A DNA stretch of 48,514 nt from Promethearchaeota archaeon (lineage in GTDB: Archaea; Asgardarchaeota; Lokiarchaeia; Sigyniarchaeales; SOKP01): contig JBHLNF010000007.1 in NCBI GenBank assembly GCA_048937405.1, positions 185,436-233,949 on the forward strand, written 5' to 3'. The notes under the pieces are model-generated. The model ran no database searches. It had not been told where the DNA came from and saw nothing but the letters and a program-made list of their open reading frames with translations. Shown here one piece after another: positions 26,124 through 34,779 of this stretch (positions within the stretch are counted from its first letter, which is position 1; each line of letters begins with the position of its first letter). The translations under genes were made by a program, and so were the position numbers.

Positions 26124-26300
26124 TATAATATTAATAGTTTATTGTGAACCACACACAGCCTAAAGACTGTGGCTTCCTACGAGTACACAACCGCTTCTAG
26201 TATGGGTTGGTCTGTATGTCGTAGAAAACCATTCCATTGTGTTAGGAATGATTCCTCGTTCACAGAGGGTTCATGCGATAGGAAGTCATATTTCTGCTTA
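26124..26300 (-). ncRNA. Predicted TnpB omegaRNA (reRNA): scaffold overlaps the tnpB 3' end and ends at 26144; guide region starts at 26143
   Basis: Right-end hairpin CACAGTC-TTTA-GGCTGTG and terminal TTCAC are seen directly. Existence and the 5' boundary are inferred from known TnpB locus architecture (5' end approximate). Confidence 0.55.
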
Positions 26301-27475
26301 GATGTTAAAAACCGCGTCATGATATTGATTGCAGAGTTGAGATCGCGGTCAATATGATTTCCACAATTGCAAATAATATTCCTTTCAAAAATTGATCTTT
26401 TTTTAAGCTTTCCACATTTACAGCAGGCTTTTGTGGTCATGGATTCATCAATTCTTATTACTCTTTTACCTATTTTTTCCGCTTTGTAGGTTAAGAATTC
26501 GACAAACCTTGACATATAGCCTGTGTTGTGAACTGAATGATTAAGCGTTTTGTTTACTTTATTCTTTTTCGTGTTATCTGCTGCTTTTTTCTTTTGAGCT
26601 ATCTTTTTTACTTTTAATTTTCCTACTATAATAGTATTTGCTTTCGTGTGAGATAGTATCTGTTTTGAGAGCCAATGTTGGAAATCTTTAAGTTGATGAG
26701 TACATTTCCTTATCATCTTTTTCCTTTTTTCATTGTACCAATACCATTTCTTACTGTATTTTTTACAATGATCTCGTTTCGACTGTACTTCCTCTATTTT
26801 CTTTTTCCAGTAGATGTCCGCTCTTTTATGGTTGAATTGTACTGATTTTCCAAAAATATTAACCCCTACAGTCTGATTTATTCCCAAATCAAATGCCTGA
26901 TAGAAGTGATTGTCGCTATATTCAGGGACTTCGACCTCATAGCTGAGGGAAACAAACCACTGGTTATTATCAAAGATAATCTCAACCTGCTTAATTATCC
27001 CTTCTGGAATGAGATGAGGGGGAATCTCAAAGTTAAGAACTGTTTTCGAAGGATGCTTATGAGAGAATATAATTGAGTTCCCTTGTAGTTTAAACCCAGA
27101 TTGACTATAACAGAGCGTAGTGAAATGCTTCTTGCCTCTAAATCGTGGTGGTCTCGCTTTCTTATCTCCTTTTTTCCACAGAGAAAAAAATGATTTGTAA
27201 TTAGAATCCAGTTTTTTAAGCATTGTTTGCAGAACCTTTGAATATACCCATTTATACTCAGGATAATTCTCTTTTAATGAGGGTAGGGCTCTCGATTGGT
27301 CTACATATCCTATATATTGTCGCTCTTCCTTTTGTTTATCCCTGTTTTGTCGCCAATTTTCTATTCGTTCAGCTAACGCAAAATTATATAAAAGCCGACA
27401 CTTCTCGGATATTATTCTGAGAATATGTATCTGCTCCTCAGTTGGAAAAAACCGAATCTTTTGCGTTAGTTTCAT
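26144..27475 (-). mobile_element. IS200/IS605-family (IS1341-like) element carrying tnpB only; right end mapped, left end not mapped
   Basis: tnpB is followed on the minus strand by GAAGCCACAGTCTTTAGGCTGTGTGTGGTTCAC, a typical right-end hairpin ending in TCAC. No tnpA in the window. Confidence 0.8.
26177..27475 (-). CDS. tnpB: RNA-guided endonuclease TnpB
   Basis: N-terminal K.RFFPT.EQ...L......CR.LYN.AL.ER, PPRFRGK, RuvC-I AFDLG, FLTYKAE..G, DESMTTK.CCKCG...CNCG zinc finger, RuvC-III DRDLNSAINI. Confidence 0.93.
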   Translation of the reverse strand: MKLTQKIRFFPTEEQIHILRIISEKCRLLYNFALAERIENWRQNRDKQKEERQYIGYVDQSRALPSLKENYPEYKWVYSKVLQTMLKKLDSNYKSFFSLWKKGDKKARPPRFRGKKHFTTLCYSQSGFKLQGNSIIFSHKHPSKTVLNFEIPPHLIPEGIIKQVEIIFDNNQWFVSLSYEVEVPEYSDNHFYQAFDLGINQTVGVNIFGKSVQFNHKRADIYWKKKIEEVQSKRDHCKKYSKKWYWYNEKRKKMIRKCTHQLKDFQHWLSKQILSHTKANTIIVGKLKVKKIAQKKKAADNTKKNKVNKTLNHSVHNTGYMSRFVEFLTYKAEKIGKRVIRIDESMTTKACCKCGKLKKRSIFERNIICNCGNHIDRDLNSAINIMTRFLTSKQKYDFLSHEPSVNEESFLTQWNGFLRHTDQPILEAVVYS

Positions 27476-28868: not shown

Positions 28869-30311
28869 TCATGGAAATTTAAATCTCTCTTTAAAATGTT
28901 CCCAACTTTTTTTATCTAAAGGATTTTCATTTAAAAATAAGAAATTAAGACCTTTCAAGCTTTTTATGCTCTCATTGTTGAATTGTGATATTTGATTTCT
29001 ACCTATATGTAAAATGATTAGATTATTCAAACCTTCAAACCCCTCTAATTCCTCTATACTATTGTTATCCAAATATAATTCTTGTAGATTTTTTAGATTT
29101 GTTAAACATTTAATTTTTTTAATCTTATTGTTAGACAATTCCATTTTTTTTAAGTTCACCTGATTTTCAAGACATCCGATATCAGATATAAAATTATTTG
29201 AGAGGTATAATCCTTTAAGCTGATGAAGAGTTGATAGATCACTAATTTGAGTTAATTTATTATCATTAAGGTGTAGCCACATCAAATTTCTTAGATTTCT
29301 AAGACCTTTCATATGTTCGATTTGATTATATGCAAGATTTAATCTATTCAACTTCTCCAAATTATCTAGATTTTTAATTTCTGAAATTTGATTATGACTC
29401 AAATTTAACTCTTCTAAATTCACTAAATTAGTTAAATTGGTAATTTCTTCTATGAGATTATTATTTAAATACAATTTTTTTAAGTGACGTAAAGAATCTA
29501 AGTTATCTATTTTATGGATCTTGTTATTTGACAAATTTAATTCTTCTAGATTGATTAAATCATCTAAATTCTCAATTTTTTTTAATTTATTATTTGCTAA
29601 ATCAAGTTTTCTTAATTTATTTAAGATTTGGATTCCTTCTATACTTTCAAGTTTATTTCGCGCTAATTGAAGATACTCTAGTTCAATCAAGTTTTGTATT
29701 CCGAGAATATCTGAAATTCTTTTTAGATTGGAACTCTCACAATTTATAGAAATTATTTTACCACCTCTTATTGTCACAAGATATCCACATTTCTTAGTGT
29801 AAAAGTTGTGTAGAATTATATTATTGCAAATGTCGAGATATACTTTAGGGATGGGTTCATTAGGATCAAATTCATTGATTTCTTTTAGATCCCGTCTTTT
29901 TTTATCATGAATGTAATTCTTATTTATATTATTAAGGAATTCTATTATTAATTTCCGCGTTTTTATATTATTGATTGAATTCAATGTTCTTAAAGCAAAA
30001 AGCTTCAATTCTACATTATCAATCATTTTTAGTGAATATTCTAACAATTGAATTAGCTTCTTATTTTTCGAATACTTTTCTCTTAAAATTTGTCCCGCAA
30101 TTAATCTAATTTGAAGATTCTCGTCAGAAAGAAATAATTGTTCAAAAAATTTAAAATTTTTACCTTCTTCGAGCAAACCATAGATTTTCAATGCTTTCTG
30201 ACGTAATGTTATATCATTTGAACTATCAATCCACTCTCTTAAAAAAGCTAAACTTTCTCTTTTTCCAATTTGCTCTAAATTATCTTTTATGAAATCGGGA
30301 TCTAATTCCAT
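28869..30311 (-). CDS. Leucine-rich repeat protein (SDS22-like 22-aa repeats) with HEAT-like N-terminus
   Basis: About 12 repeats of L..L.L..N.I..I..L..L (e.g. LEELNLSNNKIHKIDNLDSLRH). Helical N-terminal part with LR.KAL / IR..A..IL motifs. Confidence 0.92.
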   Translation of the reverse strand: MELDPDFIKDNLEQIGKRESLAFLREWIDSSNDITLRQKALKIYGLLEEGKNFKFFEQLFLSDENLQIRLIAGQILREKYSKNKKLIQLLEYSLKMIDNVELKLFALRTLNSINNIKTRKLIIEFLNNINKNYIHDKKRRDLKEINEFDPNEPIPKVYLDICNNIILHNFYTKKCGYLVTIRGGKIISINCESSNLKRISDILGIQNLIELEYLQLARNKLESIEGIQILNKLRKLDLANNKLKKIENLDDLINLEELNLSNNKIHKIDNLDSLRHLKKLYLNNNLIEEITNLTNLVNLEELNLSHNQISEIKNLDNLEKLNRLNLAYNQIEHMKGLRNLRNLMWLHLNDNKLTQISDLSTLHQLKGLYLSNNFISDIGCLENQVNLKKMELSNNKIKKIKCLTNLKNLQELYLDNNSIEELEGFEGLNNLIILHIGRNQISQFNNESIKSLKGLNFLFLNENPLDKKSWEHFKERFKFP

Positions 30312-30464
30312 GTTAAGTATTTACCAATCTAAAATATTCGATCTTAGTTCAATACTATATATATGTTCGAAAGAGTAAAAATCTGTTTAGTAAGAAATAC
30401 AATAAAAAAGAAAAAAAGAAAAAAGACTAATATTACAATTTCCCTATACTTGGAGGAGCTTAAT

Positions 30465-30514
30465 TTAAAAGTATTGATGGATAACCTGTGGACTCACCTC
30501 ATTATACTCCCTTC
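30465..30514 (-). pseudogene. Remnant copy of the actin gene 3' end (RREYNEVSPQVIHQYF*)
   Basis: 43/50 nt identical, ungapped, to 33634-33683 (actin [16 protein letters not shown]), including the stop codon. No start codon or further actin similarity upstream. Confidence 0.85.
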
Positions 30515-30700
30515 TAAAATAATATCTTTCCTTAAAAATAATAATATGTAATCTTAAAAAAAGAAAATGAAAAATCTAATATCTAAAGACAAAGATAATC
30601 CTCATCGTTATCCTTATTAAAATCTTAATTTACTTTATAGCAATCCACACAAAACCATCTCTTTTCCACGGGATTGTAATAGCCCAAGTGTAAAAACCTT

Positions 30701-30851
30701 AAATCTGGATTTAATAAAAAACAAAGAAATTTATTAAAATAAAAAAATAAGCAAAATTATGCCATTATATAGATACAAAATCTGGATTTAAGAAAAAACA
30801 ATAAAATTTATTAAAATATAAAAATAAGCAAAATTATGTAAACGTATAGAT
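30701..30851. repeat. Two-copy tandem repeat, period 77 bp
   Basis: AAATCTGGATTTAA...AAGCAAAATTATG...TATAGAT starts at 30701 and again at 30778; 4 mismatches over the first 61 nt. Confidence 0.9.
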
Positions 30852-30929
30852 GTAATCGATGTTCAAAAAAAATGTTTGAATTTTTAGAAAAGGATTAAAT
30901 CTGTAAAAATTCAAAAATTCGGTGAGATT

Positions 30930-32252
30930 ATGCAAAATTCCACCAAAAGAATTATAATTTTATTAATTTATTTTTCAAGTCCTTTAATTGTTATTCTCCT
31001 ATTCTATGCTTTAAATCCCACAGAATTAATTCAACCTCTTTTAAGACAACTGGCAGATATATTAGGTATTACAGCCTATATACTACTGGTTTATGAATTT
31101 GTGTTAACCTCTAGATTAAAGTTCATCGATAAGATCTTTGGAATGGATCGGATTATTTTATTTCACATAATTATATCCGGTATTGCTATTCAGTTAGTAA
31201 TAACACATGGGATTATCATGTTTTATATAAGTGGAAAAACTCTAATTCTGATCGGATCGGGAATTAATTCCTTAGTACAATTTATTCTCTTAATGGCAGT
31301 AGGAGTGATCTTTTTACATGGGTCTGGAAAAAAACTGAAAAAACTAAAGTATAATGTAGCTAAGACAATACACAATTTAGTGATTATTACTGCATCTTTC
31401 TTATTTCTACATGCGTTAATCACTAATCTAAATTATCCGTCTCCAATTATACTTATCATATTTACCTATTTTTATCTATTCGCATTAGTTTCTTGGCTAA
31501 ATCTTAAAGTAATTCGAATAAGAAAAGTGAAAAATAATCCTTATGAAATTATTCGAGTTAAAAATGAAGCAATTTCTTATTGGACTCTAGAATTAAAACC
31601 GAAGAATAGAAAAATTTTCGATTATGCACCTGGCCAATATGGCTATCTCTCTATTAAATCTCAGGAAGTATCAAAAGAATTTCATCCCTTTTCATTTACA
31701 TCAAGTCCCGTTAATAAGGACTGCATTAGTTTTATAATAAAAGAATTAGGAGATTATACGAATCAAATAGGGACAGTTAAAGTTGGAGATACTGCCTATA
31801 TTGAGGGTCCTTACGGAATTTTTAATGCTCATAAATCTAAATCGAATCAACTAGTTTTGATCGCTGGAGGATCTGGTATTACTCCATTTCTTAGTCTGTT
31901 GCGTTATATGGAAGACTCTAAGAATACTAGGAAAATAACTCTAATCTGGGGTATAAGATATCCTTATGAATTATTCCTGAACGAGGAATTCGAAAAAATG
32001 AAGATAAAAAATCCAAACCTAACCATTATTCCCATAGTTTCTGATGATGATAGTTGGGAAGGTGAATGTGGATTTATTGATCGTGAGAAACTAGAGCGTC
32101 TTGCCCCCTGTGTCGATCCTGGAAAAAAGATCCAAAAAAATGATTATTACCTTTGCGGACCTCCAGCTATGGTGAAGAGTGTTCGACCTGCATTGAAATT
32201 AATGGGCGTAAATAAGAGGAAATATCTTCACACTGAAAAATTTTATCGCTAA
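30930..32252 (+). CDS. Ferric reductase-like/NOX-like transmembrane flavocytochrome (TM haem domain + FAD/NAD(P)H-binding domain)
   Basis: Six hydrophobic helices with paired His (LFHII..ITHG; TIHNL..FLHA), PGQY, EFHPFS.TSSP, IEGPYG, IAGGSGITPF, YLCGPP.M, C-terminal EKF. Confidence 0.88.
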   Translation: MQNSTKRIIILLIYFSSPLIVILLFYALNPTELIQPLLRQLADILGITAYILLVYEFVLTSRLKFIDKIFGMDRIILFHIIISGIAIQLVITHGIIMFYISGKTLILIGSGINSLVQFILLMAVGVIFLHGSGKKLKKLKYNVAKTIHNLVIITASFLFLHALITNLNYPSPIILIIFTYFYLFALVSWLNLKVIRIRKVKNNPYEIIRVKNEAISYWTLELKPKNRKIFDYAPGQYGYLSIKSQEVSKEFHPFSFTSSPVNKDCISFIIKELGDYTNQIGTVKVGDTAYIEGPYGIFNAHKSKSNQLVLIAGGSGITPFLSLLRYMEDSKNTRKITLIWGIRYPYELFLNEEFEKMKIKNPNLTIIPIVSDDDSWEGECGFIDREKLERLAPCVDPGKKIQKNDYYLCGPPAMVKSVRPALKLMGVNKRKYLHTEKFYR

Positions 32253-32294
32253 ATCTTATTATCCCTCTTTTAATTTTTTCAGAATATGCTCTGA

Positions 32295-32501
32295 ATATGC
32301 TCTATTATTAGTTTGAAGAATCTAAGAGAATTTGTAATTAATAGTAAAATACTTGAAAGTATTTCTAACAATATTCTTAATTTTATGAATCTAGAGAAAT
32401 TAATTGTTAGGAGCCCTCTCCTAAATTCAAACCCTAAAAAACTAGAAGCTTTAAAAAAAATTAACCTTCTTTCTAAGAAATTTAATTCACTGAGTCCATG
32501 A
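32295..32501 (+). pseudogene. Probable degenerate leucine-rich-repeat gene fragment
   Basis: SIISLKNLREFVINSKILESISNNILNFMNLEKLIVRSPLLNSNPKKLEALKKINL follows an LxxLxxLxL..L..IxxxIxxLxxLxxL periodicity. Preceded by an 11-bp tandem duplication (GAATATGCTCT x2, 32282-32303) that contains the in-frame stop. Confidence 0.45.
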
Positions 32502-33050
32502 AAACCGGATTGTAGTCCAACCTTCTCCTTTCCATGATTTATTAATATAGGAATAATTAATTTTTTTGTCAAGGCATAATTGAAAAAAACACATTGCCCA
32601 TCCAACTGCTGAGTGATAATAATTTGGCCAATTATGAGGTGTATCTTTGTAAGTGATTTCTAATTCTGTGTCAGAGAAAGAATTTAGTATAACTTCACCA
32701 AAGTTATAAACCTTTCTGTGAAAACGACTATATTTTTCAAAAGCAATTTGAAGATCCCCTTTAAAAACAGTAGATTGGTAAATCGTCGTAAACCAACGTT
32801 TTGCTTCATCAAAACCCCATTGGAGTAGAGTATTTGGATTATTTCGTGCTTCTACATAACATAAAGCATCAAAAAGCTCCCGAAATTCTTCACAAGGATA
32901 CCAAGATGCAGATAGAATCCTTTGATTAAGTAATTCCTTTGCCTTATCTGAGAGCATTACATCATATTCATGTCTTTTTCTATGATTTATTTTGATTGAC
33001 TTCACAATCGTCAATACTAACGTTCCTTTAACTTGTTTAAAAAAAAACAC
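32487..33050 (-). CDS. Hypothetical protein resembling DUF2378/TIGR02265 (H-NOX/V4R-like ligand-binding fold)
   Basis: VKGT.V....., ILSASWYP, C-terminal GW..... and W.G...T.IRFSW pattern. Start uncertain: the GTG lies inside an SD-like GAGGTG followed by a T run. Confidence 0.5.
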   Translation of the reverse strand: MFFFKQVKGTLVLTIVKSIKINHRKRHEYDVMLSDKAKELLNQRILSASWYPCEEFRELFDALCYVEARNNPNTLLQWGFDEAKRWFTTIYQSTVFKGDLQIAFEKYSRFHRKVYNFGEVILNSFSDTELEITYKDTPHNWPNYYHSAVGWAMCFFQLCLDKKINYSYINKSWKGEGWTTIRFSWTQ

Positions 33051-33633
33051 CTCATTTATCCTAATTATAACTTACTTAATATTAACTAAATAAATCTAAA
33101 TTAAAAAGAATCTTTAGAAGGTCTTTCAAAAATATAATAGAATTATAATTATAAAAATCTTTTTTGAACTCTATTATTTAATGTTATTTCAGCAAAACAT
33201 CTTTTCACTTTATTATTAATTAGTTATAGAGAGATTTAATATCAGAAGTATATAAAGAAACTCCTAAAAATAGACCTTTTTCTAGTTATAACCTCATTAT
33301 TCTAATCAAAATTATCAATTTTGCAATAATCCTTTCAATAGATATAAGAGATTAATAAGCTCAAGTCCTTAAATGTTTCTCTAATAAATATGTGTATAGA
33401 TCCTTTGCAAAATAATGAAAGTAATATTTAGTTGCTTAAATTAACTTAAATTTAAATTGATTAGATAATAATTTTTTAATTTATTGAATCTTAACTTCTT
33501 TGGGGAACTAAATTGAATATTCTCTTAACTGCAATAAAGAAATATTTCTCAAAATAGACACAATAAAAAAAAGAAAAATAAAAAAACTTATGAAATTTAT
33601 TCCCATTCGATTTTTATAAATATATTTCTCGGA

Positions 33634-34779
33634 TTAGAAGCATCGATGGATAACCTGTGGTCCCATCTCTTTATACTCCCTTCGAGTTACCCACATTCTA
33701 TGGAATGTTTTCAAGGAGCTTAAGATTGAACCACCAATCCATACTGAGTACATACGCTCTGGAGGTGCGATAATCTTTACATCAACACTTTCAGGAATCT
33801 GCTCCTTAATTTCTTTGGTTAACCTTTCTTTGATACCAGGGAACATAGTGGAACCACCAGAAAGTACAATATTACTATATAAATCCCTTCTAAGATCTAC
33901 ATCACATTCTGAAATGGCGCCAACAATTACATCATCAAGGGGTTCTAATTCTTTACCGATTACACTCGGATTAAAGAAACACTCAGGAGCAAGGAATCTT
34001 TCTACACCAACATTGATTGTCTCTCCATCAGGAAGCATGTAGCTCTTTTCCATCCCAGCTACTTTCTTTGAAAGCATCATTTCTTTTTCAGGATCGATTG
34101 CTACATAGCACAATTTTTCTTTGATATCTCGAACAATTTCTTTTTCTGCAGATGTTGTAAAAGAGTATCCCTTTTGTCGAAGAAGTCTCTGTAAGTAAGT
34201 TGTAATATCCCGACCTGCTAGATCGATTCTCTGGATAGCATGGCTTAAGGCGAATCCCTCAAAAATTGGAACTACGTGGGAAACTCCGTCACCAATATCT
34301 ATAACACATCCGGTAGTACGACCAGAAGCATAAAGGCTCAATACTGCTTGCATTGCTACATAAAGAGCAGGAGTATTGAAAGTCTCAAACATAATTTCAG
34401 CCATCTTTTCACGATTTGGTCGTGGATTTAATGGTGCTTCAGTCAAAAGAACAGGATGTTCACTTGGATCGATACGCAGATCAGTATAAAATGTATAATG
34501 CCAGATTTTCTCCATTGCTGTCCAGTCTTCAATGATACCATGTTCAACAGGGAACATTAACTTTAAAACGCCTTTTAATTGCATAGCTTCCTCACCAATA
34601 TAATATTCCCGAGTATAATGTTCAACATCAGTCATGATGCTTTCATACTTAGGATAACCAATTAGTGTTGGGAATACTGACCTCGGTTGATCCTCACCGG
34701 CAAAGCCATTCTTGGAGATACCAGTACCATTGTCAACAACCAAGGCTTTTGCGTTCAAAAAGCTTTCTTCCTCTGCCAT
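33634..34779 (-). CDS. Actin (Lokiactin-type, eukaryote-like)
   Basis: [117 protein letters not shown]-terminal IHRCF. Confidence 0.98.

Follow-up and report, generated by a model that had tools for sequence, protein, structure and literature searches.

An actin gene end stranded behind a cargo island in a Lokiarchaeia genome: probable integrase-free gene capture

Results and discussion

The actin locus and its stranded 3' end

We analyzed a 48,514-nt stretch of DNA (hereafter the window; assembly GCA_048937405.1, contig JBHLNF010000007.1, positions 185,436 to 233,949) from a Promethearchaeota archaeon of the Lokiarchaeia. The window carries an intact Lokiactin gene on the minus strand, behind which lie an island of cargo genes, a second copy of the last 50 nt of the same actin gene, and a conserved 480-aa LRR gene. 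Genomes are labeled G (G000 being the Promethearchaeota genome under study), loci L, contigs C and sequencing runs X. The features are as follows, in the order in which they are met behind the actin gene.

33634..34779, minus strand: intact Lokiactin gene, 381 aa (Pfam Actin, E 1.5e-132)
33560..33633, minus strand: 3' trailer of the intact actin with an oligo-T tract, a likely terminator, G036-type (trailer alignment)
32487..33050, minus strand: cargo gene (187 aa) with 52-62% identity to a tandem family of seven genes, contig C7
32313..32501, plus strand: possible, weak LRR-like remnant (tblastn E 0.08, 36% over 53 aa)
30930..32252, plus strand: cargo gene for a NOX/ferric-reductase-like oxidoreductase, 440 aa (Pfam)
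30701..30851, no strand: two 77-bp tandem copies, 87% alike (TRF)
30515..30678, minus strand: 3' remnant of an F14 gene (30592-30678; a 128-aa helical-hairpin/C4 zinc-finger-like gene family) with its trailer, shared with G070
30465..30514, minus strand: stranded actin 3' end, the last 50-52 nt, decaying (alignment to actin)
30390..30464, minus strand: second actin trailer with an oligo-T tract, G010/G023/G070-type (trailer alignment)
28869..30311, minus strand: conserved 480-aa LRR gene, directly behind actin in nine relatives (Pfam and locus comparison)

A reading made earlier from the sequence alone had claimed that 30465-30514 is an ungapped copy of the last 50 nt of actin (33634-33683) in the same orientation, with 43 of 50 nt identical. 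Alignment and BLASTN against the whole 4.47-Mb assembly (E 5e-9) bore out this direct repeat, which was the sole stranded actin tail in the genome and scored 72 compared with a shuffle maximum of 27. Relative to the intact actin, the copy showed two silent and five replacement codons, in agreement with the five amino-acid changes that had been read from its translation. The T-rich trailers sat 66 and 74 nt beyond their respective stops, exactly where they had been placed by that reading, and their alignment revealed two different allele types, the G010/G023/G070-type at 30390-30464 and the G036-type at 33560-33633. The stranded copy is followed by its own T-rich trailer and then by the 480-aa LRR gene, and the repeat measures approximately 125 nt.

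A misassembly was ruled out by Logan contigs of three sequencing runs that span the junction, so that the assembly check proposed earlier was negative. The contigs of X1 (30123-31929) and X2 (30123-31086), both possibly derived from the source sample, matched the window without any difference, and X4, from another study, bridged the junction (30476-30658); in all, three public runs from two studies cover the junction without differences. A second actin paralogue on contig C7 (85% identical in amino acids) was considered as the source of the stranded tail and was rejected. The orthologous stranded copy in G070 contains a premature stop. The stranded tail is a real, decaying scar, and the single fragment in the window is old and functionless.

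Variation behind actin among relatives

Comparison of the actin loci revealed empty sites in nine genomes of the genus, in which the LRR gene lies directly behind actin (141-163 nt), and cargo without a copy of the tail behind actin in eight others. Among 206 partly redundant loci, 72 different first-neighbour families were found behind actin. Further stranded tails were present in G070, G028, G064, G027, G063 (two) and G022 (in an inverted context), as well as in metagenome loci, one of which (L200) has three in a row. The tail in G070 represents the same event as the one described here, with 140 nt of left flank in common; on the LRR tree, the genomes with stranded tails are spread over at least four branches and interspersed with empty sites. 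The sequence-only reading had taken the layout for an insertion scar, had suggested a search for empty sites and other cargo among relatives, and had raised the idea that the actin 3' end is a recombination hotspot. The nine empty sites and the widely varying enclosed segment support the insertion scar, and the varied cargo and repeated scars in relatives support the hotspot. Such capture has probably recurred, both behind the actin of relatives and at approximately 30 further genes of the genome under study.

Counted back from the last base of the stop codon, the fragments started between 26 and approximately 133 nt upstream, or comprised up to whole genes; in undecayed copies the starts were sharp and different from each other. 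A module consisting of F14 and a 380-aa LRR gene (LRR380) was found behind actin in several donor-type loci, and its capture produced five different right-hand junctions. In G028 the junction lies at the stop of F14; it lies 15 nt beyond this stop in G023, approximately 55 nt beyond it in the present locus and G070, and approximately 95 nt beyond it in L418, whereas L422 has the complete LRR380 gene before the junction. Whole second actins were found in L160, L162 and G076.

Several other arrangements were observed at these loci. In L200:2602-5896 (Ga0299912_10016057), the three stranded actin tails (~120-133 nt) separate cassettes that include an RHH antitoxin-like gene and a TumE toxin-family gene. 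L160:8001-11344 and L162:7259-10589 each contain two complete tandem actins around a 183-185-aa HTH-like gene; those of L162 are 77-89% alike in DNA and nearly identical in protein. In L079:4334-5494 (G076), a chimeric second actin of 386 aa with a foreign N-terminus lies 1.6 kb behind the normal gene, and the open reading frame (ORF) that follows it is related to a 4,151-aa ORF located behind actin and F14 in L036 (G003). Genus-wide, actin is found in two opposite orientations between the same flanks (LRR480 and a 324-aa gene), which indicates that the actin gene itself was inverted in one part of the genus. An apparent disruption of actin in G023 was traced to a scaffold gap.

We also observed mini-introns of the bulge-helix-bulge (BHB) type, 30-31 nt in length, in Lokiactin genes. 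Counted from the gene end, they lie at -42 in L197, L198, L340 and L345 and at -64 in L340; a further one, which contains in-frame stops, lies near codon 88 in L285. The hairpin insert of L197 (L197:2071-2101; Ga0114923_10071780) forms a full BHB motif, and excision at the BHB cut sites restores the frame in L197 and in L285 (L285:5903-5932; shuffle null 0.3%).

Allele mosaicism at the actin 3' end

The Lokiactin protein is 99-100% identical across the genus. Several young fragments differed from the actin of their own genome nearly exclusively at silent positions (silent/replacement: 9/0 in L423 after the junction codon, 6/0 in G022, 12/2 in G063 and 4/1 in G027), which indicates that two alleles had met; the G027 fragment had its best match, 28 of 30 nt, in G018. 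Along the gene, the excess third-position identity of actin alleles to their near kin fell toward the 3' end (0.16, 0.08, 0.05 and 0.03 in successive bins), and the allele nearest over the first 300 nt was hardly nearer than average over the last 100 nt. In particular, the actin of this genome follows its closest relatives, G036 and G064, up to nt 1035-1050, beyond which it resembles the distant G028 (max-chi P 0.0005, for triplets chosen after inspection among kin that are not independent), and its last ~100 nt belong to an allele type other than that of G036 and G064. Judged from these alignments, the actin 3' end is a mosaic between species. As both the Lokiactin DNA and its neighbourhoods are mosaic, the downstream neighbours of actin should not be read as its functional partners.

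Gene-end scars across the genome

All 3,522 ORFs of at least 100 codons were scanned for stranded copies of their own ends, which measured 28-248 nt. The 3' end of the gene itself was stranded downstream on the same strand for 18 genes, compared with 1 upstream and 2 on the opposite strand, and the 5' end was stranded upstream for 15 genes, compared with 0 downstream and 1 on the opposite strand. The genome thus contains 33 polarised gene-end scars (~7 per Mb), 32 of them besides actin, with one pair of convergent genes marking a single locus; by inspection, the targets include uS8, IF-2, HisRS, S-adenosylhomocysteinase and DinB. The capture layout is not special to actin. The silent share of changed codons in the scars was 38%, compared with 18% simulated; the neutral expectation depends on the assumed mutation spectrum, and a flat spectrum would give ~25%. 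In 26 of the 33 scars the cargo was not a copy of the flanking genes, nor was it at actin here. The two tyrosine recombinases of the genome are located far from all scars, and the infB scar encloses a LAGLIDADG-like gene.

Low-power controls yielded two polarised scars in 400 kb of G077, two without clear polarity in 400 kb of G055, and only icd/icdC in an 800-kb stretch of E. coli K-12 that had been selected because it contains icd; they weakly suggest that such scars are commoner here than in bacteria. The 33 scar loci bracket 1-21 cargo genes each (e.g. C7:199724-215133 and C28:480461-492364), and at uS8 a 15-kb insert lies within a ribosomal protein operon.

Searches for an enzyme or mobile element

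The earlier reading had noted that the interval lacks an integrase, and none of the genomes searched had one near actin. In 54 genomes of the genus, where the contig allows, we found no tyrosine recombinase or LAGLIDADG gene on the actin contig at a distance of up to 50 kb. The 6 kb behind actin were also searched with seeds and profiles at 206 loci, which comprise 135 distinct regions (575 kb, young cases included), and again no recombinase or LAGLIDADG gene was revealed; a positive control was included, and highly diverged nuclease families could escape detection in this search. No nuclease was among the top Pfam families listed for 73 cargo representatives, no integrase, resolvase or Cas1 was found near actin, Cas1 was not found in the genome, and the insert held no casposase- or PolB-type ORFs. 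Two checks proposed by the sequence-only reading were made as well: two scans of IMG/VR for an attP-type actin tail in viruses gave no match, and no joint across the repeats, as expected of an excised circle, was present in the contigs of four runs, which drop rare forms. A search in five genomes of unknown class for an actin-linked nuclease of Hermodarchaeia found none in 1.5-kb flanks. The actin of this genome has no intron. The genome contains approximately seven LAGLIDADG-like ORFs, of which the one in the infB scar has been mentioned above.

One-sided homologous recombination as the probable origin

We consider the stranded tail to be probably (probability about 0.6) a scar left when genes were captured without an integrase, through one-sided homologous recombination with the DNA of a relative that was anchored in actin rather than in a site-specific attachment (att) site. 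As a starting point, DNA of related Lokiarchaeia would have carried the 3' part of actin, its terminator and the gene behind it, at first F14, as the donor-type loci suggest. This DNA would have paired through actin, the most conserved sequence available, and would have restored a complete gene, in keeping with the mosaic actin. Its far end may then have joined illegitimately inside the other actin tail; the product would have the order gene, terminator, cargo, stranded tail, terminator and LRR gene, which is the layout at this locus. Later exchanges added the 187-aa and NOX-like genes and truncated F14 while the tail decayed neutrally, as the comparison with G070 shows. Host recombination enzymes would suffice for all of these steps. 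One-sided homologous recombination is predicted to leave one side homologous and fixed and the other variable (PMC5361080), and both the homologous anchor with mosaic alleles and the variable illegitimate junction (five for one donor module) were observed.

Several points weigh against this explanation. The candidate junction microhomology measures only 4-5 nt and cannot be fixed, with donor proxies only ~75% alike, and the fragment starts were more clustered than a uniform null in some tests. The fragment here best matches its own actin (43/51, next 41) and differs mostly by replacements, so that two alleles are evident at this locus only in the trailers and not in the coding part, and either copy may be the resident one. 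The silent excess seen elsewhere is also compatible with an integrating element, since E. coli icdC, which was left by prophage e14, likewise shows 9/2 silent/replacement differences. Moreover, for 7 of the 33 scars a paralogue of the cargo lies immediately outside, and these may have arisen by tandem duplication; an HFIR-type capture would depend on RecA/RadA and on DNA uptake or transfer from cell to cell; and homology-facilitated illegitimate recombination (HFIR) is orders of magnitude rarer than normal recombination (PMC5361080).

The closest known likeness is found at the type VI secretion system (T6SS) effector/Rhs loci of Vibrio, where orphaned 3' ends are proposed to arise through HFIR (PMC5361080). 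The two share a one-sided conserved anchor, an illegitimate joint, an old 3' end displaced downstream, a foreign allele and successive events that build arrays, without an integrase. The anchor in Vibrio, however, is a toxin scaffold with a variable tip, whereas Lokiactin is an invariant housekeeping gene and its protein stays the same; here, too, the cargo is unrelated to the anchor, and the pattern is genome-wide, in an archaeon. The horizontal gene transfer hotspots that lack mobile genetic elements and are flanked by recombining core genes (PMC5635113) resemble the actin locus in their high cargo turnover without integrases and in the elevated recombination of the flanking core gene; their double-crossover model leaves no duplicated gene end, and it explains the spread of filled sites but not the origin of the stranded tail. 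In the literature library searched, we found no paper describing such capture for Lokiactin.

Asgard genomes are large and rich in transferred genes, whose acquisition has mostly been attributed to mobile elements. The scars point to frequent DNA exchange among related Lokiarchaeia species, with housekeeping genes as landing pads, and they provide countable, orientable markers of gene gain (~7 per Mb here).

Alternative explanations

A homing endonuclease with a preferred site, now lost or acting in trans, could have cut the intron-less actin near its end; repair from a donor would then have copied the tail, terminator and neighbours and stranded the cut-off tail, with mini-introns protecting alleles from cutting. 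This shares its repair step with one-sided homologous recombination, and we regard it as the main rival, although a rather unlikely one. It draws on the fragment starts, which fall into three groups (-26 to -28, -45 to -52 and -61 to -69), two of them close to where other Loki actins carry BHB-type inserts (-42 and -64), on the LAGLIDADG-like ORFs of the genome, including that of the infB scar, and on the fungal mitochondrial mORF gene hybrids (Allomyces atp6; Glomus atp6, atp9, cox2 and nad3), which have the same layout (PMC3630166): a foreign 3' end on the gene, inserted DNA and the native 3' end displaced downstream. A uniform 22-140 null gave significance for this clustering (P 0.003-0.025), whereas nulls of shorter length did not (P 0.06-0.21). 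In the fungal hybrids, the insert encodes a LAGLIDADG or GIY-YIG endonuclease, whereas none was found behind Loki actin: the 135 distinct regions held neither a LAGLIDADG gene nor a remnant of one, even in young cases, and the top Pfam families listed for the cargo included no nuclease. The actin here also lacks an intron, and F14 shows no nuclease fold. On our estimate, it is rather unlikely that a homing nuclease, since lost or acting in trans, preferentially breaks the Lokiactin 3' end near the BHB mini-intron positions; if it did, a single process would connect the replacement of actin-tail alleles, the spreading of mini-introns in mRNAs and the capture of genes without an integrase in Asgard archaea.

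The other readings are less probable still. A tandem duplication or template switching might have duplicated the tail and terminator in place, with the cargo inserted between or along with them. The copies here, in G070 and in G028 best match the actin of their own lineage and differ mostly by replacements, whole tandem actins exist (G076, L160 and L162), and tandem duplication is common in Asgard genomes (PMC13247210). The two trailers are, however, of different allele types, young fragments elsewhere represent foreign alleles, whole actins in tandem have diverged as alleles, and the cargo was not copied from flanking genes here or in the 26 scars noted above. The duplication alternative of the sequence-only reading therefore falls for those relatives whose two copies are different alleles, and for the copy in the window alone it stands as an improbable rival. 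Even less credit is due to that reading's leading idea of the actin tail as an att site, taken here to serve a site-specific element such as a virus, plasmid or casposon with an integrase that is now missing or works in trans; this idea is already largely refuted. The layout equals that of E. coli icd-e14-icdC, with an intact gene, an insert and a displaced 3' fragment, and icdC too differs mainly at silent sites (9/2); fourteen thaumarchaeal elements use the 3' ends of protein genes, with att sites of median 17 bp (PMC6563490); and five events start within -45 to -52. In e14, the thaumarchaeal elements and the casposons, though, an integrase or casposase lies inside the insert and the boundary is fixed, and neither was seen here, where left and right junctions vary. 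Casposons at aEF-2 have target-site duplications (TSDs) of 1-27 bp with terminal inverted repeats (TIRs) (PMC4046053), whereas the repeat here measures ~125 nt, and the casposon hallmarks (a Cas1-like casposase, PolB, TIRs and a TSD up to 27 bp) were not found. The cargo consists of chromosomal genes from several loci, and the searches for tyrosine recombinases up to 100 kb from actin (54 genus genomes, where the contig allows), for Cas1 in the genome, for IMG/VR matches and for a joint across the repeats (in contigs that drop rare forms) were all negative. Least probable is a maintained antisense or regulatory RNA against the 3' end of the actin mRNA, another earlier suggestion. Transcribed from the plus strand, the fragment would be 86% complementary to the mRNA end; its conservation relative to G070 (46/52), however, was no better than that of the adjacent pseudogene flank (121/140), the trailer (65/76) or the promoter (66/79), and it is missing at the nine empty sites.

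Cargo of the island and neighbouring genes

Ordinary chromosomal genes, brought together in layers, make up the insert, which is not a single element. F14, whose family is often found directly behind actin in relatives, is most likely an earlier cargo of the island. The Cys-motif remnant of the sequence-only reading is indeed a remnant, and it proved to be the 3' end of this 128-aa zinc-finger-like gene. F14 was also considered as a mobilising enzyme; it has no Pfam match, only weak helical-hairpin/zinc-finger look-alikes and no nuclease fold that we could see, and it is multicopy, and it was treated as cargo. The family (L074:2971-3357; 128 aa, helical-hairpin/C4 zinc-finger-like) occurs in 1-9 copies per genome, is confined to this Lokiarchaeia family among 150 genomes searched, and in over ten genomes has a member as the immediate neighbour behind actin, with both orientations represented.

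The 187-aa gene, previously called DUF2378-like, has no Pfam match, and its DUF2378 identity is only a lead, resting on Atlas look-alikes that include a DUF2378 cluster (DUF2378/V4R-like). Its seven tandem paralogues in this genome are located at C7:841485-847033 (L088), with Myxococcota look-alikes in the Atlas. The calls of a NOX-like oxidoreductase and of a 77-bp tandem repeat were upheld by Pfam and TRF, respectively, and three close homologues of the NOX-like gene that were checked (61-82%) sit in a redox cluster away from actin. Of the proposed LRR remnant, only a weak match (E 0.08) is left; the adjacent 480-aa LRR gene as query gave no match to 32313..32501, which rules out its derivation from that neighbour.

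Elsewhere in the window, a stand-alone TnpB/Cas12f-like gene was found at 26177-27475; it was not found at the same position in the relatives examined, and at least three full-length copies (73-74% identical) are present elsewhere in the genome.

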